DNA of 64,000 nt from a virus (IMGVR_UViG_3300045282_000112:20384-84383), one strand, 5' to 3'; positions 29,580 to 42,905 are shown, counted from the stretch's first letter. The notes: generated from the sequence alone by a model not told the origin. Translations and numbers: made by a program.

Positions 29580-30470
29580 TCACGTCAGGGGGACGATGGA
29601 GCACCGACAATTGGGATGGGCGGGGATCAGGTCCCTCGCTTCTGCCAGCGTATAGCTGTTGCCTTCGTAGTTTTCGCATATGTCGCAGACCTTGTCATCC
29701 CCAACCGTCTCGACCGTGTAAGCCTCGGGCGGGCGGTCACGCTCCTCGGGGAACGATACTGCCTCCGGGTTCTCCTCGGGCAACATGCTTTCCGGCACAC
29801 GATGGTCGGGGTGCGTCTCGGCTTCGACGCCCACCGTCTGGATGCCCAGCTCCTCGTAAGCGTCGAGCTTGCCCGCGTTGTATGCCCGGGTAACGTTGGT
29901 AGATGACAACGCGTTGAGGCGGCTCACCAGCGGGCGGATGACGAAGGGCAGGACCGCCATCGTGTAGAGCAGATGGCGTGAGCGGGTGGCCGCCGCCGCC
30001 AGCGTGTCGTCCTCCTCCAGCTGCTGCTTCATCTCGTCGATCTGGTCGAGGAGCATTGCCTCCAGCTCGGTGCGCGCCTTCAGGATCAGGTCAGTGGTGC
30101 TGTTGGTGAGCGGCAGCACTGGGGCGACTTCCTGCCCCGCCTTGCGCACGCCGCGCGCGTAGGCGGTGCGCAACAGCGTTTCCATGTTGTCGGTGGCGGG
30201 CGTGAACGCGAACTCTGCCTGCCTGAGCAACAGGGTATCTAGCCGTTCGAGCAGTGCCTCGATGTCGCCGGGGTCCACGTCGCCGTAGGAATAGCCGAAC
30301 TGATCCGCTTCCACCAAGGCGGCGTAGGCTTGGCTGCGCCACAGCGCGAGGCTCTGCCGCATGCCGGTCGCCATCCTGCGCCGGATGTCGTTCGACTGCG
30401 TCGGGTCACGCTTCTTCGCCGCATCGCTGAAGGCGTGCGGGTGCACATGCGGGGCCGACGCAGGGAACAA
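29580..30470 (-). CDS. Head morphogenesis protein (MuF/SPP1 gp7-like), no toxin extension; start uncertain
   Basis: RDPT, AYARG, TRAYN.GKLD.Y..LG, TVGDDKVCDIC...IPAHPNCRC. Confidence 0.85.
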   Translation of the reverse strand: MFPASAPHVHPHAFSDAAKKRDPTQSNDIRRRMATGMRQSLALWRSQAYAALVEADQFGYSYGDVDPGDIEALLERLDTLLLRQAEFAFTPATDNMETLLRTAYARGVRKAGQEVAPVLPLTNSTTDLILKARTELEAMLLDQIDEMKQQLEEDDTLAAAATRSRHLLYTMAVLPFVIRPLVSRLNALSSTNVTRAYNAGKLDAYEELGIQTVGVEAETHPDHRVPESMLPEENPEAVSFPEERDRPPEAYTVETVGDDKVCDICENYEGNSYTLAEARDLIPAHPNCRCSIVPLT

Positions 30471-30471
30471 C

Positions 30472-30933
30472 TCAGACCCAATCGTCGGGCATGCGCGCGG
30501 CGGGCGTCTTGTTGTCGATGCGCGGCTCGATGCCGTTGGCAATCTGGATCGGCGGCACCAGCTTGCCCGACGCGATGAGCTTGCCAGCCCCGCTGGCCGC
30601 TCCCCCGATGGCGAAGTGCGTGGCGTAGAACGGTTGCACGATGTCGGTCGGGATGGTGAAGGCAATGACGTTGACCGCTGTCACCATGCCGCCGCCCACC
30701 TTCCAGCCGAGCGGATTGCGCGGCACCAGCACGCGCGCGTAGCCAGTGTAGAAGACCTCGCTGGTCAACTGGTCCTGCACCTGATTGGTGGGCAGGATCG
30801 GGTCGGCCTTGCACAGCGACACGTAGAAGCTGGTGAGCGGCGTGGTCGTGTGGTTGATGGCGATGCCTTGGATGGCGACAGCTTGGAAGAGGAGCTTCAA
30901 GATGTCGTCTTCGAACGGAATGGTCGTGGGCAT
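30472..30933 (-). CDS. Virion structural protein
   Basis: FEDDILKLLF...YVSL..ADP...TSEV.YTGYARV...ATHF.IG. Confidence 0.7.
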   Translation of the reverse strand: MPTTIPFEDDILKLLFQAVAIQGIAINHTTTPLTSFYVSLCKADPILPTNQVQDQLTSEVFYTGYARVLVPRNPLGWKVGGGMVTAVNVIAFTIPTDIVQPFYATHFAIGGAASGAGKLIASGKLVPPIQIANGIEPRIDNKTPAARMPDDWV

Positions 30934-31049
30934 TAGTTCAATCCTTTCAGTTGGATAGTGGGTGGGGACCGCTGGGTTGAGGAGGCAAAAGCGGTCCCCC
31001 GCCGCCACACCGCCCAGTGGGCTGGTGAGGTCCGGCAGCACGGCGGCGT

Positions 31050-31262
31050 TTAGTCGATGGGCGGGCCGACGTAGGTCAACACGTTGTTGCGCATTTCGAA
31101 CAGGGTCCAGTCCTGCAGGTGCTCGGGCAGTTCGCTCTCGTATTCCGGGGTCCACTCCTGCGGCAGGTTACCGACCCAGTTGAAGGCGATGTAGTTCTCG
31201 CGATCCACTGGCAAGCCTGCCTTGACCAGCCACCTCTCGATCCCGTCAGGACTTCCTTGCAT
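31050..31262 (-). CDS. Small acidic protein, candidate antidote/partner of the upstream effector
   Basis: 70 aa, overlaps the stop of the 574-aa gene; GLPVDRENYI...EYESELP. Confidence 0.65.
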   Translation of the reverse strand: MQGSPDGIERWLVKAGLPVDRENYIAFNWVGNLPQEWTPEYESELPEHLQDWTLFEMRNNVLTYVGPPID

Positions 31263-32970
31263 TTGCCCGTTCCCCTATCGCCCACACTGCGTCCAGCACC
31301 TTGTCGTGCGTGATCTTGTCGGCGTTGTAATCCTTCCACAACGCTGCGATCTCCGCATCGTCGGCCTTGTTGAGATTGGCGAACAGGTCGCGCTTCACCA
31401 CCCAGATCACTGCCTGCATCTGGTTGGGCAGCAGCGGCGGCTTCTGCTCGGCGGCCAATTGCCGATACGCCTCGGCGTATATGCCGTAGGTGCCGAAAGC
31501 ACCGTAGCGGTTGCTGTCCTTGGCGGGCTCCCAGCCCTCGGGCTTCACCGACGGGTTGTTGGCGAGACCCTGCGAGACGGCGGGCGCGCCACCCGGGTAG
31601 GGCTGCATCCACGCTGCGCCGATAGCGTGCGTATCCATGGTCACGTCACCGTCGAGCCCGTCGGGGTCGAGGATGTTGTTGTAGAAATTGCGCACCTTGT
31701 GGACTTGGCTGAGCGCCTCGCTGATCTGGATGCGGTCGCCGTTCGCCATCAGCGCCGCCACTGCCGCGCCCGTCGCCTTGGTGTTGTTCCAGCCCGCCTT
31801 CGACTTCGCGCCGACTTCCTCGCCCGTATCCGGGGCGTTGGTGTGGAAGTCGCCGAAGGTGCCGTCGGGATTGTAGATGCGGAAGCCATGCCCGCCGTTC
31901 TGCGCGGGGTCGCCATGCGCCTCCTCGTAGGCGCGTATCCACAGGCCCTTCTCTTCGGCGCTCTCGCACTCAGCCAGCGTCTTGCCCACAATGGACGGCA
32001 GCATCTTCACCATCGGCGGCGTCTTCTTGACCTTGCCGGTCTCCCGCAGCTTCTTCTCGGCGGACTTCGCCTCGTCGCTGACCAGCTTGTCGGCGAACGC
32101 CTGCATGCCGTCGTCCCAAGCATGCTCCTGCTTGGTCATGTAGATGTCGATCAGCTGGTCGCCGAGATATATGTTCTGATCCCAGTCCTTCTGCGGCGAA
32201 AGTGCGGCGTAGACGGCGGCGACACTGGCGTCGTTCAGGCCATACTGCTTGACCTTGTGATCGACGATCTGGCGCGCGCCGCGATACCAGTTGACCGCCG
32301 TAAGCTGCGCTGCCGTGGCCTTGCCGAGCAGGTAGTTCATGTTGGTCTTCATGATGCGGATGGCGTTGTGCGCGATGTCGTTGGCGCTGCCCGTCAGCAT
32401 CTCGGGCCGCATGCCCGGGTAGAAGTCGGGGTTCTTCATCAAGTCCATGTTGGCGCTGAAGCGGCCCTTCGTCGTGCCGTCGGGCAGCTTTACCGGGTCG
32501 TCCTCGGTGCGCTGCATCTGCGCGAGGTCGTTCTGGACGTAGGTGTTGTCGCTGTTCTGCGTCTTGAACTTGGTCGAGGTGACGCTGGGGCTGATCTTGG
32601 CCGGGTGCGACGTGGGCTTGGTGCCGCTGATCCGCTCCTTCGGATAGGAGTGCGTGCCGGTCGCCGTTGCCGTCTTCTTGACCGCCTCGGCCTTTGGTGT
32701 GGCTGCCTTGCGCTCGCTGCCCGCCTTCTCGCTGCTGCCGCCGCTGCTGCCGCCACCCGTCGTCCACTCACCCTGCTCGTTGCGCGGCTCGTCGGGATCG
32801 TAGTCGGCGATGACGTGCTTCGGATGCTCGGCGGGCACGAGGAACAACACCTGACCGTCGGCGAAAGTCACCTTGGCGAGCGCATGGTTCTCACGGCTCG
32901 CGGGGCTCCAATCCGACTTGACGTAGGCAACGGTAGCGCGCCGTCCGTTGATCTCCAGCTGCTCGATCAT
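31246..32970 (-). CDS. 574-aa effector-like protein: small N-domain, tag motif, HhH-GPD glycosylase-like domain
   Basis: ATGA overlap at 32970; NWY.GA...AALSPQKDW..N, KVRNFYNNI, VTMDTHA, AEAYR...QMQAVIW. Confidence 0.7.
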   Translation of the reverse strand: MIEQLEINGRRATVAYVKSDWSPASRENHALAKVTFADGQVLFLVPAEHPKHVIADYDPDEPRNEQGEWTTGGGSSGGSSEKAGSERKAATPKAEAVKKTATATGTHSYPKERISGTKPTSHPAKISPSVTSTKFKTQNSDNTYVQNDLAQMQRTEDDPVKLPDGTTKGRFSANMDLMKNPDFYPGMRPEMLTGSANDIAHNAIRIMKTNMNYLLGKATAAQLTAVNWYRGARQIVDHKVKQYGLNDASVAAVYAALSPQKDWDQNIYLGDQLIDIYMTKQEHAWDDGMQAFADKLVSDEAKSAEKKLRETGKVKKTPPMVKMLPSIVGKTLAECESAEEKGLWIRAYEEAHGDPAQNGGHGFRIYNPDGTFGDFHTNAPDTGEEVGAKSKAGWNNTKATGAAVAALMANGDRIQISEALSQVHKVRNFYNNILDPDGLDGDVTMDTHAIGAAWMQPYPGGAPAVSQGLANNPSVKPEGWEPAKDSNRYGAFGTYGIYAEAYRQLAAEQKPPLLPNQMQAVIWVVKRDLFANLNKADDAEIAALWKDYNADKITHDKVLDAVWAIGERANARKS

Positions 32971-35405
32971 CTCAGGCGGCCTTGCTTTACCAGCTCCTTG
33001 TAGGTCTTCTTCACGTCCCGGTAGTAGCTGTTCCAGCTCGGCGTATGCTTGACGCTGCCCAGCTCGTATTCGAGGCGCGCCATCTCGGCCATGGTCTCGT
33101 GCATGCCCTGCCGTGTGGATGCGCCACTGTGCTTGACGGCGTTCCACCACTCGGTCGAGTAGTCGGTGAGCCCGTCCTCGTCGGCCAGCTTCTGCCAGTT
33201 CAGGTTATGCTTCACGAAGCGTTCGTAGATCGGGAACTGCTTGTCGTAGGGCGGGGCGAGGCTGCCGTCGGGGTGCATCCATCCCTTCCACGGTTTGTCG
33301 GGGTCGGGGCCCGGCTCGTTGACGCCCGGCAGCGCCTTCTGCATGGCCTCGCTCTCTGCCTGCAGCGCGTCCAGCACCTGCTGATACTGGATGTGCATCA
33401 CCTCGTGCGAGGTGACGCCCGCGATGGTGCCCGAGTTCAGCTGGTCGGGGAACATCAGCACGGTGCCACGCTTGTGGCCGCCGGGTGGCTGATCCATCGA
33501 GTAGGCCATGCCCGCCGCCATGTATTCCCGCCCGCCCAGCACGAAGCGCGCGTCGGAAGGCTTGCCGATCATCACCGTCTTCGGGTCTGCCCCCAGCTCC
33601 TCGGCGACGTTGCGCGCCTCGTTCAGCGTGTGGTGCACGCCCATCAGGGTTTCGCGGGATGCCCAGACGTAGGGGTCCTCGCTCATCGGCGGGTTGACGA
33701 CGTAGGCGCGCTGCAGCTTCTCGGCCTCCGACCATGAGGTGACGCGCTCGCCATCTGTCCGCGCGTAGCGCTCGCCGCGCTTGGCGTAGAGGGTGGTGAC
33801 GTGCTCCGGGTCGTAGCTCATCAGCACGATGTCGGGCTCGCCCTTGTTGAATTTGGCGAAGGTCTCCTTATTCCAGCCGTCGGGCTTGAAGGTCTCGTTC
33901 CACGGCAGGCGTGCGGCGGCGCGGAAGCCCGCCTCGGCGTAAGCCTGCGGCAGCACGGTGTCGAAGCAGTCGAGGCGTCGGCCGCCTTGATCGACCGCCA
34001 GCTGCAGCGCCGACAGGGCGAAGTTGTCCACCTTGCTGTCGTGGTGCTTGAACACCGAGACGATGTTGTCGCCGTCGAGCGCGAAGCCAGCCTTGCCGTC
34101 GAGCGTCGTGAACAGCCGCAGCTTGCGATAGTCGTCGGGGTCCTTGATCTCCACCGCCGTGCCGTATTTGGTCGAGGCGGCAGCCGCTGCGATGGCGTCT
34201 TGCAGATCGCGGAAGTCGGTGCCCGAGCGGATCATGCGGGTGTTCAGCTCTTCGAAGTGAGCTGGCGTCGCCTTGTTGGTCTTCAGGTAAGCCTTAAATC
34301 CCGGCGTCGGCCGGAAGATCATGCGCCCACCGCTAGTAATTGCTCTAAAGCTTCTTCCTTTGTAAGGCTTGGATGAGCTGACAGGACTTCGCGGAGGAGC
34401 TGGTGCATACGGGGGGTTAGACCCTGCTCCAGCATGCGCCGTGCCTGTTCCTCCAGTGGCGGCCGATGCTCCTCCTCCTGATCCTGCAGCCGAAGGTGAG
34501 CCCCCGCCGCCCCCGCCGCCTTCTCCGGTCCATTGTCCGCCGCCCTCTTCCCCTGCGGGAACTCGCGGTTGGTCTGGGTCATACGCGTCAATCCTCCTGC
34601 TGTCGCTGCTCGCGGCGGCGACACGCTTTTTCAACTCGGTCCAGTGCAAAGTGACACTGGGCGCGACGCGTATGCCGCGCCCCTGTATAAGTGGGGTGCG
34701 GGCGATCACATCGCCACGGTATACGTTAACAATATCGTCGATTGATACACCGCCGATGACCCCTACCTCGTTTTCTGAGGTGCCCTGCACACGGCGCAGG
34801 CGCTCGTCGACGGGTTGCCGGATGGCGATCACGTAGGCGGGCCGGTCCCAATCGGCCTTCTGCTGCTGCGGCGCGAAGCTGCTGGCGTAGGACGCTGCCA
34901 CGCTCGGGTCAGTGGCGTAGTAGGTCAGGCCCTTCTGCGCCTCGCCGATGTTGTATTCGCCCTTGCTGCGCACCTCCCCCGTCGCTTGGATGGCTTCGAA
35001 CTCGGCCGCCGCCATGCCCCGGTAGATGATACCGGCAGAGCGTGCGCCCGGAAGGTCGCCCTGATGCGGGGCAGTCGGGATCAGCTGGTCATGTTCCATG
35101 TCGACCGGCTTGCCCTCATACTCCAGCACCATCCGCTCGTGGCGGTAGAAGCGTGGGTCGTAGTGACCTATCGTGTCGCGGTTGGCTTGGTAGGGCACCC
35201 GCTTCTCGGGTCCTGCAGGCGTGAAGCCTCCCTCGCCCGAGGTCCACTGCCCCGACGGGTCGCGTGGCTGGTCGGGATCGAAGTCCTGCCACCGCTGCAG
35301 CCGCTGGGGCGGGCTGTAGGGCTCGCAATCGAAATGCGCTACCCAAGCGTCCCGAAAGCGGCTGGCGCGCTCCAGCAGGGCTGCAGGGGGCAGGAAAAGG
35401 CTCAC
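32967..35405 (-). CDS. 812-aa polyvalent protein: ART-like, GNAT-like and zincin metallopeptidase domains
   Basis: GTGA overlap start at 35405; YRGM...TYYATD...ENEVGV; DNIVSVF...GGRRLDCFDT.LP..Y...GF; HEVMH...TDYS...HETMAE. Confidence 0.72.
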   Translation of the reverse strand: MSLFLPPAALLERASRFRDAWVAHFDCEPYSPPQRLQRWQDFDPDQPRDPSGQWTSGEGGFTPAGPEKRVPYQANRDTIGHYDPRFYRHERMVLEYEGKPVDMEHDQLIPTAPHQGDLPGARSAGIIYRGMAAAEFEAIQATGEVRSKGEYNIGEAQKGLTYYATDPSVAASYASSFAPQQQKADWDRPAYVIAIRQPVDERLRRVQGTSENEVGVIGGVSIDDIVNVYRGDVIARTPLIQGRGIRVAPSVTLHWTELKKRVAAASSDSRRIDAYDPDQPRVPAGEEGGGQWTGEGGGGGGGSPSAAGSGGGASAATGGTGTAHAGAGSNPPYAPAPPRSPVSSSKPYKGRSFRAITSGGRMIFRPTPGFKAYLKTNKATPAHFEELNTRMIRSGTDFRDLQDAIAAAAASTKYGTAVEIKDPDDYRKLRLFTTLDGKAGFALDGDNIVSVFKHHDSKVDNFALSALQLAVDQGGRRLDCFDTVLPQAYAEAGFRAAARLPWNETFKPDGWNKETFAKFNKGEPDIVLMSYDPEHVTTLYAKRGERYARTDGERVTSWSEAEKLQRAYVVNPPMSEDPYVWASRETLMGVHHTLNEARNVAEELGADPKTVMIGKPSDARFVLGGREYMAAGMAYSMDQPPGGHKRGTVLMFPDQLNSGTIAGVTSHEVMHIQYQQVLDALQAESEAMQKALPGVNEPGPDPDKPWKGWMHPDGSLAPPYDKQFPIYERFVKHNLNWQKLADEDGLTDYSTEWWNAVKHSGASTRQGMHETMAEMARLEYELGSVKHTPSWNSYYRDVKKTYKELVKQGRLR
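34319..34582 (-). CDS. Nested out-of-frame small gene (87 aa) inside the polyvalent-protein linker
   Basis: AGGAGG 10 nt before ATG; helical C-terminus LLREVLSAHPSLTKEEALEQLLAVGA; stop overlaps an in-frame ATG of the host gene. Confidence 0.6.
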   Translation of the reverse strand: MTQTNREFPQGKRAADNGPEKAAGAAGAHLRLQDQEEEHRPPLEEQARRMLEQGLTPRMHQLLREVLSAHPSLTKEEALEQLLAVGA

Positions 35406-36166
35406 AGAGCGAACAGCTCCTCCCACATCGCCTGCGCGTTGGCGAGCGCTTGCGTGGCAGTAGGCCCGCTGCCGAGGCACCTGCCAGTGTGCATGGCCAC
35501 GAAGCTCTCGGCTTCGAACTGCTCGCGGCTGTCCATGGCGTAGGGTGAAACGGCGTCCTTGTCGGCGTAGCGGGCGACGATGGCGTCAACCACATCGGGC
35601 CCGTGCGCGGTGCGCAGCTCCTGCATGAGGATGTGCCCGAACTGGTGCAGGAGCGTGCCGTCGGCGCTGCTGTCGACCATCAGGCCCTTCCACTCACGCT
35701 CGTGTGCAGCGAGCTGGTCGGGGTGCCACTGGCGGGCGTTGAGGATAAGCTTGCCGTCGCCCGCCAGAACGAACTCGCGGTCGCCGAGGTCGCGCATCTC
35801 GACCTTGATGGGGCTGTCGATCAACGGGGAATAGTCCTCCGCGAGCTGGTCCATGGCGTCCTTGGCGTTGAGCTTGGCCTCGGTCTGCTTCATGCGGTAG
35901 CTGTAGCTCGGGCTGCCGTCCGGTCGCACGTCCTCCTCTTCGCCTGCGTCGTCGGGTTCCACGTCCCATTCGAGCAGGTTGTGCATGGGCATGGCGAGGT
36001 CGGAGGCGTTGAACGCGCTCTCCGGGCCCCATGTGCCCGTGCGGTTCGACCATGCGCTGATGACAGTGGTCTCTGGATTGCGCACCTCGGCGGCGCGGAA
36101 CTGCTCGCCCTGCGGGGAGGTGACGTTGTAAACCCGCCGTGCGTTGGGCGGTCTGTCGGCGGCCAT
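35402..36166 (-). CDS. Protein with N-terminal acidic domain and degenerate zincin (HQFGH)
   Basis: AAGGA RBS; LILN, TLLHQFGH, VSPYA...QFEAESF. Confidence 0.7.
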   Translation of the reverse strand: MAADRPPNARRVYNVTSPQGEQFRAAEVRNPETTVISAWSNRTGTWGPESAFNASDLAMPMHNLLEWDVEPDDAGEEEDVRPDGSPSYSYRMKQTEAKLNAKDAMDQLAEDYSPLIDSPIKVEMRDLGDREFVLAGDGKLILNARQWHPDQLAAHEREWKGLMVDSSADGTLLHQFGHILMQELRTAHGPDVVDAIVARYADKDAVSPYAMDSREQFEAESFVAMHTGRCLGSGPTATQALANAQAMWEELFAL

Positions 36167-36200
36167 TAGTTGTCCTTACAAATCGTTTGTATATGGTGCC

Positions 36201-38594
36201 TCAGCAGTCCTTCTGCCAGCCGCAGCCGTCACCGGAGCGGTTGTAACCCTCGACGTATCCGCGCTCCGAGGTCTTCTCGATCTCGTCGATGCGCGCCTCC
36301 TCCTCGGGGCTCTTGTTCTCCTTCGCCACGAGCACGCGGCGCTCCTCGTAGAGCTGGTGACCCTCGCCGAACTTGTATTCGAGCAGCGCGTGGGTGTTGA
36401 ACTGCAGCTCGGTGACGATGCCGTCCTTGGTGCGGAAGTTGAGCATCAGGTCACGGTAGCCTGCCATGGGGGTGAGGAAGCGGTCCTTGACGCGGATCAC
36501 GTCGTTGTTTTCGACGAAGTCCGCCACCGCCTGACGCACGGTCACGCAGTCGTCGAAGGCGACGGTAGCGCGCAGCACATCCTTCAATCCCTCGGGTGGC
36601 ACCTTCTCGTCGCGCATCTTGCGCTCGGCCGACGAGCGCGCCTTCATGGTGCGGGTGCCGGGCTCGGCACTGGTAGCGGGCGGGTAGGTGACCTTGCCGC
36701 CGAACTTCTGTGCAAACTCCTCGACCGTGCTCATGAACTCAGGCTCGGCGGTCTTGCAGGCCGCATACAGCTCGTCGATGTCGTTGGTCGGCTGTATCTG
36801 CTGATCCGGCGGCTGGTAATCCGCGCCCATGTTCTGCGCGATGTCGGTCTTCTTCGCGACCGTGGCCGTGCCCTTCGACTGCGGCGCGGTCTGGGTCTTG
36901 GTGCTGCCGGTAACCTTGGTCTCGCTGCTGGAGCTGCCGCCACCGCCGGGGCCGAACTTGCCCTTGTTGTCGGGCTGGCCGCGCGGGTGCTTGCTCTCTT
37001 CCCACTCGTCGCGCGAGCGCACGCCGAGTAGCTGCCGCACATGATCAGGATCGTAGTCGCGCGTGTGCCGGTAGCGGCGCAGGTTGAGGCGACCGGCGCT
37101 GACCGGCTTGGCGTCACGGGTTGGCTTGCCGCCACCCTTCTGGAACGGGCTACCACCACCGGGCTTCTGCTGCCCCTGCTGGCTCGGGTGCTGGTTGCCC
37201 ATGGCGTTGCCCGCCAGCATCTCCTTGCGCTTCTCGGCCTCGGCTTGCGCTGCCTGCTCCTCGGGGCTCTGCATGCTTTCGAGCGCGAGCTGTTCCTGAT
37301 CCTCAAGCGCCTGCTCAAGGCCCGGGTAGACGCCATCCTCGATCAGCTGGTTCTGCCGCCCGATGCGCAACGCCTCGGCGTCGACCAGCCCCATCATGAC
37401 ATCAAGGTTGGTGACATCGGCCTTCAACTTGGAGACCGCCGCCTTCTCGGTGGCGGGCATCTGCCACAGCGGGTTCCAGATGTAGTAGATCGACGGGTCG
37501 CGCTTGCCCAGTGCAGAGCGGATCAGTGCATCGTCAAGAGAAGCAAGGGCGGGAGACAATACATTGGTCTGATCTGAGTTAACTCGGTCGTAGTAGTTAC
37601 GGACATCACTCTCTCCAGTAGACTGTAGTCCAGCAGGGGACTGTCCCAGCATACGTGTAGCGGGGATGTCTGCTGCACCGGAGGCGATGAGGAGATACAT
37701 CTGCAGGACATCGGGGAGTTGCGTGAAATTCGCATTGATGCGCTCCCACTCCTCCTCCTTGTCGAGGAGCAGCGTGTTGATCACCGACTTCACCGAGTTG
37801 GCATACATGAAGCGTGCGGTGAGCCGGTTCTGATACTCGGCGGTGGCGATGTTCTGCGACAAATCGGGGATTTTAATGATGTCGAACTTGCTTTCGGTGA
37901 CCAACGTCGCGATGGACTGTGTCACCAGCGTCGCCGACATCACGGCGTCCTGCACGTTCTGCAGCACGGGATCGCCCCAGATTTCCCCCATCATCACGGG
38001 GTCGGGCAGCTGCATGCCCTTCAGCACGATGACCCGCGACGGGTGTATCTGGAACTCGTCGCGCGACAGCTCGGTGCCAACGTCCATGTTGCGCGTGAAG
38101 TAGAGCGGCTTGCCGTAGAGCGGGTCCATCACGTCCTTGATGAGCGGACCCGTGCCCAGCGCCCAGCGTGAGACGGGAATGATGAACTCCAGATCGCCCT
38201 TGCCGACCTTCTCGAAATTCAGCGGCTGGCTGGCGCGTCCCTGCTTGATGCCCATGATGATCGCCGCGCCGCCGTAGAGGCGCGCCAAGATCAGCGCCTC
38301 CTTCAGCACGCACTGCACATCGAGGCGCGTCTCTTCGGCCTCCAGCTTCTCGATGACGTTGGTGTCAGCCTGCCACGCACGCCACGCGCGGGTGGCATCC
38401 TGTGCCGGGATGTCGATCAGCTTGCGGGCCAGCCAATTGGCGCGGTAAGCGCTCTCCAGCTCATACTGTGACAGCGGGTTGAACTGGAAAAACGACGCGC
38501 CCGAGGCGGCCTTGTCGCGCCCCGGCACGCCGAAGCCTGCCATGAGGTTGATCAGGCTGTCCTTGAACTCGGCAGTCACCCCTTGATAAGTCAT
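36201..38594 (-). CDS. Portal protein (DUF1073 family) fused to a C-terminal RelA/SpoT-like nucleotidyltransferase
   Basis: WLARKLIDIPAQDATR, ARLYGG, IHPSR, GAADIPATRMLGQSPAGL..TGESD, WNPLWQ; C-term K..SSAERK, KDVLRAT, GYRD, ELQFNT, GHQLYE. Confidence 0.9.
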   Translation of the reverse strand: MTYQGVTAEFKDSLINLMAGFGVPGRDKAASGASFFQFNPLSQYELESAYRANWLARKLIDIPAQDATRAWRAWQADTNVIEKLEAEETRLDVQCVLKEALILARLYGGAAIIMGIKQGRASQPLNFEKVGKGDLEFIIPVSRWALGTGPLIKDVMDPLYGKPLYFTRNMDVGTELSRDEFQIHPSRVIVLKGMQLPDPVMMGEIWGDPVLQNVQDAVMSATLVTQSIATLVTESKFDIIKIPDLSQNIATAEYQNRLTARFMYANSVKSVINTLLLDKEEEWERINANFTQLPDVLQMYLLIASGAADIPATRMLGQSPAGLQSTGESDVRNYYDRVNSDQTNVLSPALASLDDALIRSALGKRDPSIYYIWNPLWQMPATEKAAVSKLKADVTNLDVMMGLVDAEALRIGRQNQLIEDGVYPGLEQALEDQEQLALESMQSPEEQAAQAEAEKRKEMLAGNAMGNQHPSQQGQQKPGGGSPFQKGGGKPTRDAKPVSAGRLNLRRYRHTRDYDPDHVRQLLGVRSRDEWEESKHPRGQPDNKGKFGPGGGGSSSSETKVTGSTKTQTAPQSKGTATVAKKTDIAQNMGADYQPPDQQIQPTNDIDELYAACKTAEPEFMSTVEEFAQKFGGKVTYPPATSAEPGTRTMKARSSAERKMRDEKVPPEGLKDVLRATVAFDDCVTVRQAVADFVENNDVIRVKDRFLTPMAGYRDLMLNFRTKDGIVTELQFNTHALLEYKFGEGHQLYEERRVLVAKENKSPEEEARIDEIEKTSERGYVEGYNRSGDGCGWQKDC

Positions 38595-41152: not shown

Positions 41153-41361
41153 TTCTTGAACTTCGGCATACCGGGACGGTCAAGCCCGACATCGGGCAGC
41201 GGCTGCTCTGGCCTCGGCTGCGGGCGCACCGAGCGGGCCGCCTTCATGCGTGTCGCCATCTCGCGGATGAACTCGTGGCGCGTGATGCCCATTGCGTCCC
41301 ACGGCGTCTGCTTCTTGTCGCCGGTCGCGGGCTTCGCGGCGGTCTTCGCTGCTGCTACCAT
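41149..41361 (-). CDS. Hypothetical protein
   Basis: GGAG RBS; overlaps the terminase stop. Confidence 0.55.
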   Translation of the reverse strand: MVAAAKTAAKPATGDKKQTPWDAMGITRHEFIREMATRMKAARSVRPQPRPEQPLPDVGLDRPGMPKFKN

Positions 41362-42905
41362 AGCCTTGCTCCTCCGAACACCTTCTGTGCCAGAATGTTG
41401 CTGGGAACGTCGCCGACCCAGCTCATGTCGCTGCGGTAAGTAGAGCCCAGCGTGAGCTTGGAGAACGCGCCTGCGGCTGCATCCACCATGTCAACGTAGG
41501 CTCCGTTGGGGAAGGTCTCGTGCTCGCCGATGAACTCCTTGTTCCACTCGGCGGCGAGGATCGACACGTTGCCTGCCTGAACTTGGGCGGCGTAGGGATC
41601 GGCGCGGATGTGCTTGGCATCGGTGACCTTGTCGGCCTCCACCTTGTAGCCCGACAGCATGCGCACCGTGGCCTCGGCGCTGTCCTTGCCACCTGAGCCG
41701 GGCTCTTGCTCTACCACGGTCAGCACGTTGTTGCCCACGTCCTGCCGGTCGAGCTGTGCTGTCTGCAGGATCATCTTCTCGCGGTCGAGCGCCGAGAGCT
41801 GCTTGCGGCGCACGTCGGTGACGATGAAGCGCCCGTCATTCAGCTTCGACATGCGCACGCCCGCAGTATAAGCACCACCCATTTCTGTGGCTGCTTTGTC
41901 CCAGTAACGGACAGTCTTGGCGATGTCCTTGGGTGCTGCTTGCACAACACGAAATTGCTCGATGGGGAACATACCCCCGCCAGCAATGATCGGGTTCTGC
42001 TGGTATAAGCTCACCCATGAGGCTTGGCTCAGGCCACGGCGGCGTTCCTCTAGGAACTCCAGCGACTTGAACTCGGGGAACAGCGCCTCGCCCTTCTTGC
42101 GGTGCGCCTCGTCCTTGATGGCGATGGCCGGGTAGTCGAGCACCACGGTCTCGGGGAATTTTTCGAGGAAGCGACCGGCCGGATCGTCGAGGTGCCAGCG
42201 GGTCAGCGTCATCAGCAGCGCGGCGTGATCCGAGAAGCGGGTGAAGAAGTCGTCGGTGAGCCAGCTCCACGTCGCGTCGCGCACGGTCTTGGAATTGGCC
42301 TCGCGCCTGCCCTTGATCGGATCGTCGATGAAGCCGAAATCAAGGCCCTTGCCCGTGACCTGTCCCGACACCGTCGTGTTGCGGAAACTGCCCTTGAATG
42401 CGCCCTGCACGGTCGGGTTAGTCGGCGTGTGCTCGCCCATGTATTCGAGCAGGTTGTTGTTGCGCATGCCCCCGACAGAGCGGCCGAAGGTGGGGAGGCG
42501 AGCACCGAACACTGACTTGAAGCGGTCGCCGTCCATCATGCGCTGCAGTGAGACGTTGACGCCCTGCCCGAGGTCGTCGGAATAGCTGGTGAACAGGCAC
42601 TTGAGATTTGGATTGCGGCCCGCCACCCATGCGATGAAGTCGGTGACCACGGTCGTCTTGCCGTGCTGTGGTGGTGCCATCAACACAAGCTTTGGCCGCT
42701 CACCGTTCATGAAGCGGTAGTAGAACGCCTCAAGATGGTCGCATACTTCCTTGATCCACCAGCCGCGAACCAAGTCTTTCTCACGGATGTGACAACGGAA
42801 ATTGTAGAAGAACTGTCGCGCCTCGCAGCGCGCCAACTCCTCTACCAATGCTACATCACGGCTGTTCTTGACCTTCGGCAGGAGGTCAGTGGTAAATCCG
42901 GTCAA
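41355..42905 (-). CDS. terL: Terminase large subunit
   Basis: APPQHGKT Walker A, IDDPIK Walker B, TRWHLDD, LYQQNP, YWDKA, EQEPGSGGK, DMVDA. Confidence 0.96.
   Translation of the reverse strand: MTGFTTDLLPKVKNSRDVALVEELARCEARQFFYNFRCHIREKDLVRGWWIKEVCDHLEAFYYRFMNGERPKLVLMAPPQHGKTTVVTDFIAWVAGRNPNLKCLFTSYSDDLGQGVNVSLQRMMDGDRFKSVFGARLPTFGRSVGGMRNNNLLEYMGEHTPTNPTVQGAFKGSFRNTTVSGQVTGKGLDFGFIDDPIKGRREANSKTVRDATWSWLTDDFFTRFSDHAALLMTLTRWHLDDPAGRFLEKFPETVVLDYPAIAIKDEAHRKKGEALFPEFKSLEFLEERRRGLSQASWVSLYQQNPIIAGGGMFPIEQFRVVQAAPKDIAKTVRYWDKAATEMGGAYTAGVRMSKLNDGRFIVTDVRRKQLSALDREKMILQTAQLDRQDVGNNVLTVVEQEPGSGGKDSAEATVRMLSGYKVEADKVTDAKHIRADPYAAQVQAGNVSILAAEWNKEFIGEHETFPNGAYVDMVDAAAGAFSKLTLGSTYRSDMSWVGDVPSNILAQKVFGGARLW

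Follow-up and report, generated by a model that had tools for sequence, protein, structure and literature searches.

A short peptide motif recurs at the junctions of effector modules presumed to be carried in tailed-phage heads

We describe a short peptide that recurs at the start of protein modules in the head-gene region of a phage-like contig. The DNA analysed (the window) is the last 64 kb of the 84,383-bp viral contig IMGVR_UViG_3300045282_000112 (64,000 nucleotides, positions 20384-84383; G+C about 63%). Window coordinates are counted within these 64 kb, and the features to which they are attached below lie on the minus strand. The peptide, here termed the tag, is 14-20 residues long, is usually followed by a Gly-rich linker, and occurs in four copies on three proteins: the portal protein and two neighbours, g837 and g634, which are named after open reading frames (ORFs) of 837 and 634 residues. 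The motif proved to be under protein-level selection, to face the downstream module and to be associated with phage head modules; its use is optional, and a cassette breakpoint coincides with it. The tag marks module starts in hundreds of other phages, and we conclude that it is a real and widespread junction motif of putatively capsid-borne effector modules, of which the window is a clear example.

An earlier note on this DNA had reported four copies in three proteins, and translation of the minus strand recovered every one of them exactly. Copy 1, of the KHPR form (DEWEESKHPRGQPDNKGKF; 36954..37010), lies in the portal. Copies 2 and 3, both of the QPR form (DFDPDQPRDPSGQW at 35244..35285 and the long-loop DAYDPDQPRVPAGEEGGGQW at 34530..34589), lie in g837, and copy 4, of the EPR form (DYDPDEPRNEQGEW; 32764..32805), lies in g634. 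When scored with a hidden Markov model (HMM) built from 99 foreign tags, without any window sequence, the portal copy ranked first (38.2 bits, E value 7e-11), the g634 copy second (12.9 bits) and the first g837 copy third (9.8 bits), the best background match being 4.1 bits; the long-loop second g837 copy scored only 2.6 bits and ranked seventh. Across all six reading frames of the 84,383-bp contig, the strict core [DE]P[DE].PR occurred just three times, always in g837 or g634. The Gly/Ser-rich stretch that had been claimed to follow each copy was clear in the translation for three of them, namely GPGGGGSSSS after copy 1 (36924..36953), a Gly-rich linker after copy 3 (34419..34529) and TTGGGSSGGSS after copy 4 (32731..32763), with 12, 19 and 11 Gly or Ser among the 30 residues after the tag, respectively, but it was weak after the first g837 copy (6 of 30).

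The tag exists in two interchangeable forms, aromatic-[DE]-E-x-K-H-P-R...G-x-F and aromatic-D-P-x-[QE]-P-R...G-x-W. The equivalent site of g634 homologues reads W-[DE]-E-x-K-H-P-R...G-x-F in some and [FY]-D-P-x-[EQ]-P-R...G-x-W in others, and bridging forms (W-D-P-x-E-H-P-R) exist. Because both forms occur within single proteins (g634 homologues, polyproteins fetched with KHPR, and g837 homologues), they constitute one family. A loose regular expression detected 141 tags in 76 of 194 related proteins, compared with 8.9 ± 2.9 in shuffled sequences. The Pro and Arg of these 141 tags were fixed by the search expression; the Gly two residues ahead of the final aromatic was present in 99% of them, and the final aromatic was followed by Thr or Ala, any residue, and then G-G-G (53-72% Gly). 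When 103 tags, including the four of the window, were aligned, P, R and G were invariant and W, E, K and H at least 90% conserved. Chance or a low-complexity artefact was ruled out by the contig-wide core count, the foreign-tag HMM, the shuffles and both pattern scans reported below.

The codons at the conserved residues were freely synonymous, with four Pro codons, six Arg codons and both Ser codon classes in use, indicating that the constraint acts on the peptide and not on the DNA. Likewise, the window's three DPDxPR cores shared only 16-21 of 27 bases, with synonymous differences, confirming the earlier statement that the DNA is diverged and that conservation is at the protein level. These data largely refute the possibility that the tag is a recombination anchor only, supplying DNA homology for cassette exchange with no role for the peptide. 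Such an anchor would suit the tag-bounded cassette indel described below and the common occurrence of tag and domain as a unit, but with the DNA so free to vary we give it hardly any credence.

Sequence collections were searched with two patterns. Pattern 1, a degenerate DNA pattern for W[DE]ExKHP[RS], matched about 610 stretches of the viral collection, of which 115 loci were listed; 103 of the 107 distinct matches among the loci listed had G-x-[FWY] within 14 residues, a feature outside the pattern. Pattern 2, DPxQPRDxxGxW, is the window's own form and matched about 250 viral stretches, and F, Y or W directly preceded 132 of the 134 distinct matches listed, again outside the pattern. In 596 Gb of prokaryotic genomes pattern 1 matched about 310 stretches, and only 62 of the 124 distinct matches listed passed the G-x-[FWY] test; 54 of the 124 were judged true tags, the rest being an unrelated radical-SAM-like family and chance matches. 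Since about 270 chance matches were expected there by our own arithmetic with equal base frequencies, the prokaryotic set serves as a negative control. A Balneolaceae/Bacteroidota protein, WWCDVKxSWDExKHPR...VITGGEPLLH (radical-SAM-like by eye; L122, L123, L125, L146, L153, L161 and others), shares the eight-residue core only, is otherwise unlike the tag, and is likewise a negative control. Full tags were also seen on contigs binned as Heimdallarchaeota and Methanomethylophilaceae (L141 and L169), which could be tailed archaeal viruses or mis-binned phage DNA, and one locus of the genome set, L197, matched only across a 44-residue tag context. A tblastn search with one 36-residue tag, which is a crude and insensitive test, returned nine phage records and none among 72,556 plasmids. 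We further examined 24 genome loci (116 of 120 selected ORFs scanned) and found that 15 had head genes and one more a tail sheath gene only, with no conjugation genes among the scanned ORFs. On these two grounds, the first of them insensitive, a plasmid or conjugative context was rejected.

The position of the tag within proteins demonstrated that it faces downstream, on the N-terminal side of a module. The smallest distance from tag to C-terminus was 83 residues (70 tags in ORFs complete at the right end), and in 21 of 65 left-complete ORFs no more than 30 residues, in one case only 3, separated the first tag from the longest possible N-terminus. In multi-tag proteins, for example L247 and L264, each annotated domain had its own upstream tag. 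When downstream domains and gene context were tabulated, as the earlier note had proposed, a portal, MuF or protease domain was found in 24 of 66 ORFs with a KHPR tag, comprising 18 with an N-terminal portal (three Pfam portal families), 3 with MuF, 2 tag-LPD3-DUF2213 protease fusions and 1 tag...S78 protease-capsid. Head domains were present in 18 of 64 variant-tag ORFs, namely 10 portals (four families), 6 MuF domains and 2 S78 fusions. Where the tagged ORF of a viral locus had no head domain, a portal, terminase, MuF, protease or capsid gene lay within 4.5 kb in 34 of 43 loci; this is a raw count in which 4 loci rest on marginal scores and two ORFs of L080 fell outside the scan. Stand-alone tagged ORFs often began a few bases from the stop codon of a portal or MuF gene.

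Many stand-alone carriers also shared an opening domain. In g634, as modelled with AlphaFold2 (AF2), residues 1-45 of the 574-residue protein (32836..32970) form a four-stranded mini-domain with a predicted local distance difference test score (pLDDT) of at least 90. Using jackhmmer, we found this mini-domain (about 45 residues) at the start of stand-alone polyvalent proteins, where it is followed by the first tag, in P0003, P0004, P0006, P0011, P0012, P0046, L014, L027, L062 and L080. It matched no family and gave only weak small-barrel fold matches, and it may be a candidate capsid anchor of such proteins.

The cargo found behind tags was diverse. It included LPD3, PBECR1/3, ART-PolyVal, ADPrib_exo_Tox, GNAT, RNase, NUDIX, InPase, PI3/PI4-kinase-like and Zeta toxin domains, as well as topoisomerase IB, ParB-like, 2H, Pyr_redox, Acb1, Tox-REase-5 and CDI EC869-like nuclease domains, lethal-factor-like zincins, SNF2 helicase and DUF7178. 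In one viral locus (L303:5608-7674) an Acb1 domain, an anti-CBASS phosphodiesterase (Pfam, 9e-41), is part of a portal protein and has a tag on its downstream side; this anti-defence enzyme apparently rides on the portal. Tags also occur in two cultured phages: in the 698-residue portal of Xanthomonas phage PhiXhv-5 the PR of the tag is at residue 528, and gp4 of Pseudomonas phage Orimi01 (703 residues) has a tag and an ART-like end.

Two or more tagged ORFs were present in 35 of the 81 loci of at least 11 kb. Together with the high copy numbers of the tag, its presence on both anchors and cargo, and its distribution over three proteins in the window, this would suit a homotypic sticker, in which tags set apart by Gly/Ser spacers bind one another weakly through their aromatic residues and Arg, and multi-tag cargo condenses around the twelve tags of a tagged portal, so that an external reader is needless. 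However, 42 of the 81 loci had a single tagged ORF within 12 kb, and many of the tags have a net acidic charge; we therefore consider a sticker very unlikely.

We next turn to the structural setting of the tags, for which AF2 models of g634 (pLDDT 87.2) and g837 (67-sequence alignment; pLDDT 74.7; three confident domains) were used. In the g634 model, tag 4 fell in a low-confidence segment, residues 48-111 (pLDDT <50), with a lone R63-W69 bridge. In the g837 model, tag 2 had a pLDDT of about 50-63 and a lone beta-bridge from the invariant R to the final W, and tag 3 lay within a disordered segment, residues 261-371 (pLDDT 27-40). The tags contacted no domain in either model, and the Arg-Trp bridge was the sole structure drawn. 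The models thus place the tags as exposed peptides in putatively disordered linkers between confident domains.

The bridge from the invariant R to the final aromatic in both models raises the possibility of a passive hairpin, with an aromatic clamp and Pro/Gly turns, that caps the linker and insulates module folding with no partner. Such a hairpin would account, without any reader, for conservation across unrelated head lineages, for optional use and for the acceptance of any module type. The residue preceding P-R was found to pair with the final aromatic (H with F in 50 of 66 tags, Q or E with W in 67 of 75), and the loop from R to G was bimodal, with 3 residues in 84 and 8 residues in 40 of the 141 tags; both features favour a hairpin. 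The pairing reflects either a hairpin-internal contact or two lineages, however, and in the latter case it would be of no help to this explanation. The pLDDT was low at the tags, strongly conserved charged residues (E, K, H and R) on so tiny a unit are more typical of a recognition site, and most homologues manage with plain Gly/Ser linkers. A purely passive hairpin is, in our judgement, quite unlikely.

Evidence that modules are gained or lost at tags came from the portal. BLASTP of the window portal against the related protein P0044 gave 66% identity up to TRDYDPD / TRDFNPD, that is, the first half of a tag, and the alignment resumed, at 48% identity, with the KHPR tag. Between the two blocks P0044 is longer by 535 residues, which comprise the rest of a variant tag and a pyridine-nucleotide oxidoreductase module. 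Because the two proteins break there, the half tag DYDPDHVR of the portal (37035..37058), which the earlier note had listed as a partial copy, is explained as a remnant of the tag's first half and a scar of cassette gain or loss at tags. The tag ahead of the RelA/SpoT-like module was of the KHPR form in P0045, of the QPR form in P0046 and degenerate in P0044, and the carriers included portal and non-portal proteins alike. Furthermore, the best aligned stretch of about 29 of 149 g837 homologues began at query residues 289-315, which is the second g837 tag, and many g837 homologues aligned tag, linker and domain as one unit. The tag-bounded cassette and these unit alignments support the earlier proposal in so far as the motif marks swappable effector cassettes.

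Cassettes of this kind were also found in Rhs toxins. Two of them carry the tag (L147, 4872-7565, and L186, 2021-3403); L129 (1-2007) is an Rhs relative, and L177 (5902-6615) is an orphan cassette. The Rhs-associated core ends at residue 505 in L147 and 256 in L186, and the tag W is at 515 and 258. The tag therefore starts 10 or 2 residues past the aspartyl self-cleavage motif PxxxxD(P/A)xGL, ahead of Pesticin-like or NlpC/P60 domains. These sequences lie in Desulfovibrio-type genomes, and the comparison suggests that phage cargo and Rhs toxins have exchanged cassettes. The tag resembles the YD/RHS repeat by eye only (aromatic-D-P...G-R-F/W), and the four window tags had no Pfam match at E≤10, RHS_repeat included. 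The proposal that the tag becomes the new N-terminus after cleavage is in keeping, only by position, with its place in the Rhs toxins.

The proximity of the Rhs tag to a known cleavage point is consistent with a role as a processing site, at which a protease, either the prohead protease or the polyvalent zincin (per Iyer et al.), cuts the polyprotein and frees the cargo. Tags are found at every junction of multi-module proteins and appear in the models to be exposed in linkers, g837 itself has an HEVMH zincin with a lethal-factor-like fold, and cargo fused to a portal would have to come free in order to exit the head. On the other hand, the Rhs cut is made by another motif, and many tags are 3-30 residues from an N-terminus, where cutting gains nothing. 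Tag-LPD3-protease fusions have the tag at their extreme N-terminus and not between cargo and protease. Four sequence-unrelated protease families occur at tagged loci, in addition to P22-like modules in which no protease was seen, and the g837-type zincin domain was found in only 7 viral loci. We judge processing at the tag to be unlikely. The same count of 7 loci led us to reject the zincin as a universal tag reader.

Our tentative preference, held at somewhat short of an even chance, is that the tag is a module header, read in trans as a handling signal and left at the free N-terminus after release. The header would mark the N-terminal edge of each swappable module in multi-module effectors carried in tailed-phage heads. 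A carrier would start with an anchor (portal, MuF, prohead protease or the 45-residue beta mini-domain) and continue with tag-linker-module cassettes. The tag, read in trans, would load or hold the module in the procapsid or serve a later release or ejection step, and would stay at the free N-terminus of the module once this is released, while the tag-linker unit would supply the boundary for cassette gain and loss. Reading in trans is probable because the peptide appears exposed and not packed on its neighbours.

Several observations weigh against the module header. The main difficulty for any model with a reader is that seven portal families (Phage_portal_3, Portal_Mu, Phage_portal, SPP1_portal, Phage_portal_2, DUF4055 and P23-45_portal_barrel) and four protease families occur at tag-bearing loci, so that there is no conserved candidate reader. 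The tag is also optional: it lay within 200 residues upstream of 13 of 34 ART-like, 42 of 121 GNAT-like, 9 of 29 zincin, 5 of 52 DUF7178-region and 3 of 7 RelA/SpoT-like homologous modules, and its presence on about 10-40% of homologous modules argues against a simple targeting signal. It was absent from the portal, F and I proteins of phage Mu, the Pag-Yong1 polyvalent protein and the UtzChips MuF fusion. Tags persist on modules already joined to a portal, MuF or protease, where a loading signal should be needless, they sometimes stand ahead of the MuF domain itself, and a single protein has up to 7 copies. The Rhs carriers have no capsid, and 9 of the 43 viral loci in which the tagged ORF lacks a head domain showed no head marker within 4.5 kb. 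Finally, low AF2 confidence is not proof of disorder, and the R-W bridge could mean a folded hairpin. Phage Mu was also considered as a model system and set aside, its H, F and I proteins being without a tag.

In a broader form of the module header, tailed phages would share the tag almost universally as a handling signal, and a conserved feature of the head or ejection path would read it to select the proteins that travel with the DNA. We hold this broader form to be doubtful. If it were true, about 20 residues could load any protein into many unrelated capsids, and the injected anti-defence arsenal of uncultured phages would become readable by listing the modules after tags.

The tagged genes of the window belong to a head module on the minus strand, in the order terminase, portal, g254, g837, g634, gp80-like ORF, MuF, ChaB-DUF2213 protease-scaffold and major capsid. 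The large terminase (41355..42905) was identified by Pfam and PHROG matches. The portal gene (36201..38594; 797 residues) was identified by Pfam (Phage_portal_3, 7.5e-99), the PHROG portal family and the NCBIfam HI1409 family. The ORF g254 (35402..36166; 254 residues), between the portal and g837, has an HQFGH motif (35633-35647); it gave no family match in Pfam, PHROG or NCBIfam and no relative among the fetched sequences. It is directly next to the RelA/SpoT-like end of the portal, where an immunity or hydrolase gene would be expected. We also considered g254 as a paralogue of the g837 zincin and rejected this, since BLASTP of g254 against g837 was not significant (E 0.84). The MuF-like minor head protein (29580..30665) was supported by Pfam Phage_Mu_F (1.4e-6, just under threshold) and by PHROG minor head and head morphogenesis families. 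The ORF at 30472-31155, between the cargo genes and MuF, is weakly like the podophage GP4 fibre protein gp80 (Pfam, 1.1e-6), and this is an odd site for a fibre-like protein. Beyond MuF, one gene encodes a ChaB domain, a DUF2213 prohead protease and a scaffold-like tail (27351..28823; Pfam; PHROG head maturation protease, 6.8e-90). The protease-scaffold thus opens with ChaB, and a tagged protein in L028 likewise begins with a ChaB-like domain, DUF6496. The major capsid protein (25867..26805) was recognised with a local HMM of 7 Major_capside proteins from the fetched loci (E 9.8e-20).

From N- to C-terminus the portal comprises Phage_portal_3 (residues 44-395; 37410..38465 by Pfam), a low-complexity spacer, the half tag, the full tag, the linker and a C-terminal cargo domain. 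The latter, residues 590-797 (36204..36827), has a RelA/SpoT-like nucleotide pyrophosphokinase fold, as indicated by an Atlas structure match to a RelA_SpoT cluster (TM 0.78) and by Pfam RelA_SpoT at E 0.053, which is below threshold. Structural matches in Atlas extended to the C-terminal domains of MuF and protease fusions, and P0044-P0046 hold the same domain behind their tags. The portal therefore has the layout of a head-protein-fused polymorphic toxin, with a portal and not MuF as the anchor.

The g837 ORF is open from 35480 (32967..35480; 837 residues). Database calls give an 812-residue polyvalent protein (32967..35405) whose GTG start overlaps the g254 stop (GTGA), and the database protein P0047 is 100% identical to residues 26-837. 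Its relatives numbered 3371 at E≤0.001, many of them giant multidomain proteins. In the AF2 model, residues 66-260 (34626..35210; pLDDT mostly at least 86) have an ADP-ribosyltransferase (ART) fold, pointed to by Foldseek, VIA and Atlas leads. The top Foldseek rows were CC0527, the Rhs toxins TreX/TreTu, Tpt1/KptA, and the pertussis, cholera and LT A chains (E 4e-3 to 8e-2, probability about 1), and VIA matched KptA (Z 10.1, root mean square deviation 2.4 over 85 residues) and TreX (Z 7.7). Model residues of about 402-573 (33687..34202) form a GNAT-fold acetyltransferase-like domain (VIA Z 8.2-6 to many GNATs; Foldseek GNAT rows) that resembles the C-terminal domain of MuF-like minor capsid proteins of Microbacterium phages. 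Model residues 582-812 (32970..33662) form a zincin-like metallopeptidase domain with HEVMH at 33393-33407, for which VIA gave the Certhrax N-terminal and anthrax lethal factor-like folds (Z 7.8 and 7.6). The 812-residue chain thus combines ART, GNAT and zincin folds, as is typical of multi-domain polyvalent proteins, at the fold level only; no Pfam match was obtained for these domains or their homologues. Residues 104-283 of g837 matched the 'large polyvalent protein' of Planktothrix phage Pag-Yong1 (6e-31).

The g634 ORF is open from 33150 (31246..33150; 634 residues), and database calls give 574 residues (31246..32970; database protein P0001; Pfam DUF7178, 4.7e-20). Behind its tag is a large helical cargo domain that includes DUF7178 (31249..32637; pLDDT >90). 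The 21 best VIA rows for this domain were all HhH-GPD DNA glycosylase or DUF2419 queuine-salvage-like proteins (Z 9.0-4.9), a fold that we take as a lead only, as it comes from a helical model. The homologue P0033 has ART-PolyVal PF18760 and DUF7178 together, which links g634 by homology to recognised polyvalent domains. Foldseek gave no match for the g634 or g837 models at E≤1e-3, and neither protein had a sequence-level relative in the PDB. Both g837 and g634 are flanked on their own strand by terminase, portal, MuF, protease and capsid genes, the gene context of polyvalent proteins. Taken together, the view that each copy of the tag precedes a different catalytic domain stood at the fold level for three copies; the g634 domain, with its glycosylase-like fold lead, is only a candidate enzyme.

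The tag offers a sequence handle on injected proteins, which are the first weapons to face host defences and are hard to spot from sequence. Among the modules already flagged by it are portal-borne Acb1, ARTs, RNases, kinases, topoisomerases and alarmone-synthetase-like domains, and it defines an exchange unit among phage head proteins, polyvalent proteins and even Rhs toxins. It also provides a concrete peptide for questions of cargo loading, release and ejection, the processing of polyvalent proteins having been open since 2017. If the peptide proved sufficient for loading, it would be a general tool to package proteins into phage particles.

The carriers are of known kinds, polyvalent proteins and head-fused polymorphic toxins, and the tag itself is apparently undescribed. 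The four window tag peptides matched no Pfam family at E≤10 and no Pfam LPD model. In NCBIfam the portal and g634 tag peptides had no family at E≤0.01 and the tagged proteins no match covering the tag, and a profile of the 103 tags found no PDB sequence at E≤10. No description of the tag was found in the searchable literature or in the searched main text of PMC5512222, PMC5576092, PMC11699363 and PMC7824862.

Loading by the tag, if it occurs, could be likened to that by the capsid targeting sequence of phage T4 or an encapsulin cargo-loading peptide. The T4 sequence is confined to T4-like phages, is N-terminal only and is removed by the prohead protease. The tag, known here from sequence alone, differs in being also internal, repeated and common to many head lineages. 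As summarised in PMC10893049, the T4 sequence is a short peptide at the N-terminus by which unrelated proteins, GFP among them, enter the prohead. Encapsulin cargo-loading peptides are described as short conserved peptides with a flexible linker on diverse cargo enzymes, read by an HK97-fold shell; they differ from the tag in being usually C-terminal, in their sequence and in having a known receptor pocket. In Rhs proteins the boundary PxxxxDPxG[WLF] is reported to precede a hypervariable toxin and to be a site of cassette exchange (PMC8765631), but that motif belongs to the aspartyl autoprotease of the shell, whereas the tag belongs to the cargo side. MuF polymorphic toxins are described as having an N-terminal head protein, presumed to be the capsid-targeting part, and a variable C-terminal toxin such as an ART (Jamet et al. 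2017, PMC5576092), and the MuF-Apk2 type has a RelA/SpoT-like (p)ppApp synthetase toxin end (Bxa and Apk2 work, PMC11699363). The window shares this layout with a portal as anchor, and no immunity gene was identified there, g254 being without a family match. In the searched text of these two papers MuF is named as the domain for targeting, and no junction motif is given. The closest parallel is with phage-type polyvalent proteins, multi-domain effectors that are encoded near portal and terminase genes and whose packaging and injection are presumed (Iyer, Burroughs, Anand, de Souza, Aravind 2017, PMC5512222). The main text of that study describes zincin peptidases of the type found in g837 and, as among the tagged carriers, ART, GNAT, PBECR, 2H, NUDIX, InPase and kinase domains and MuF or portal fusions. 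A search of this text found no conserved peptide at module starts, although the supplements might show one. The tag would add to this known class of effectors a sequence mark at the start of its modules.

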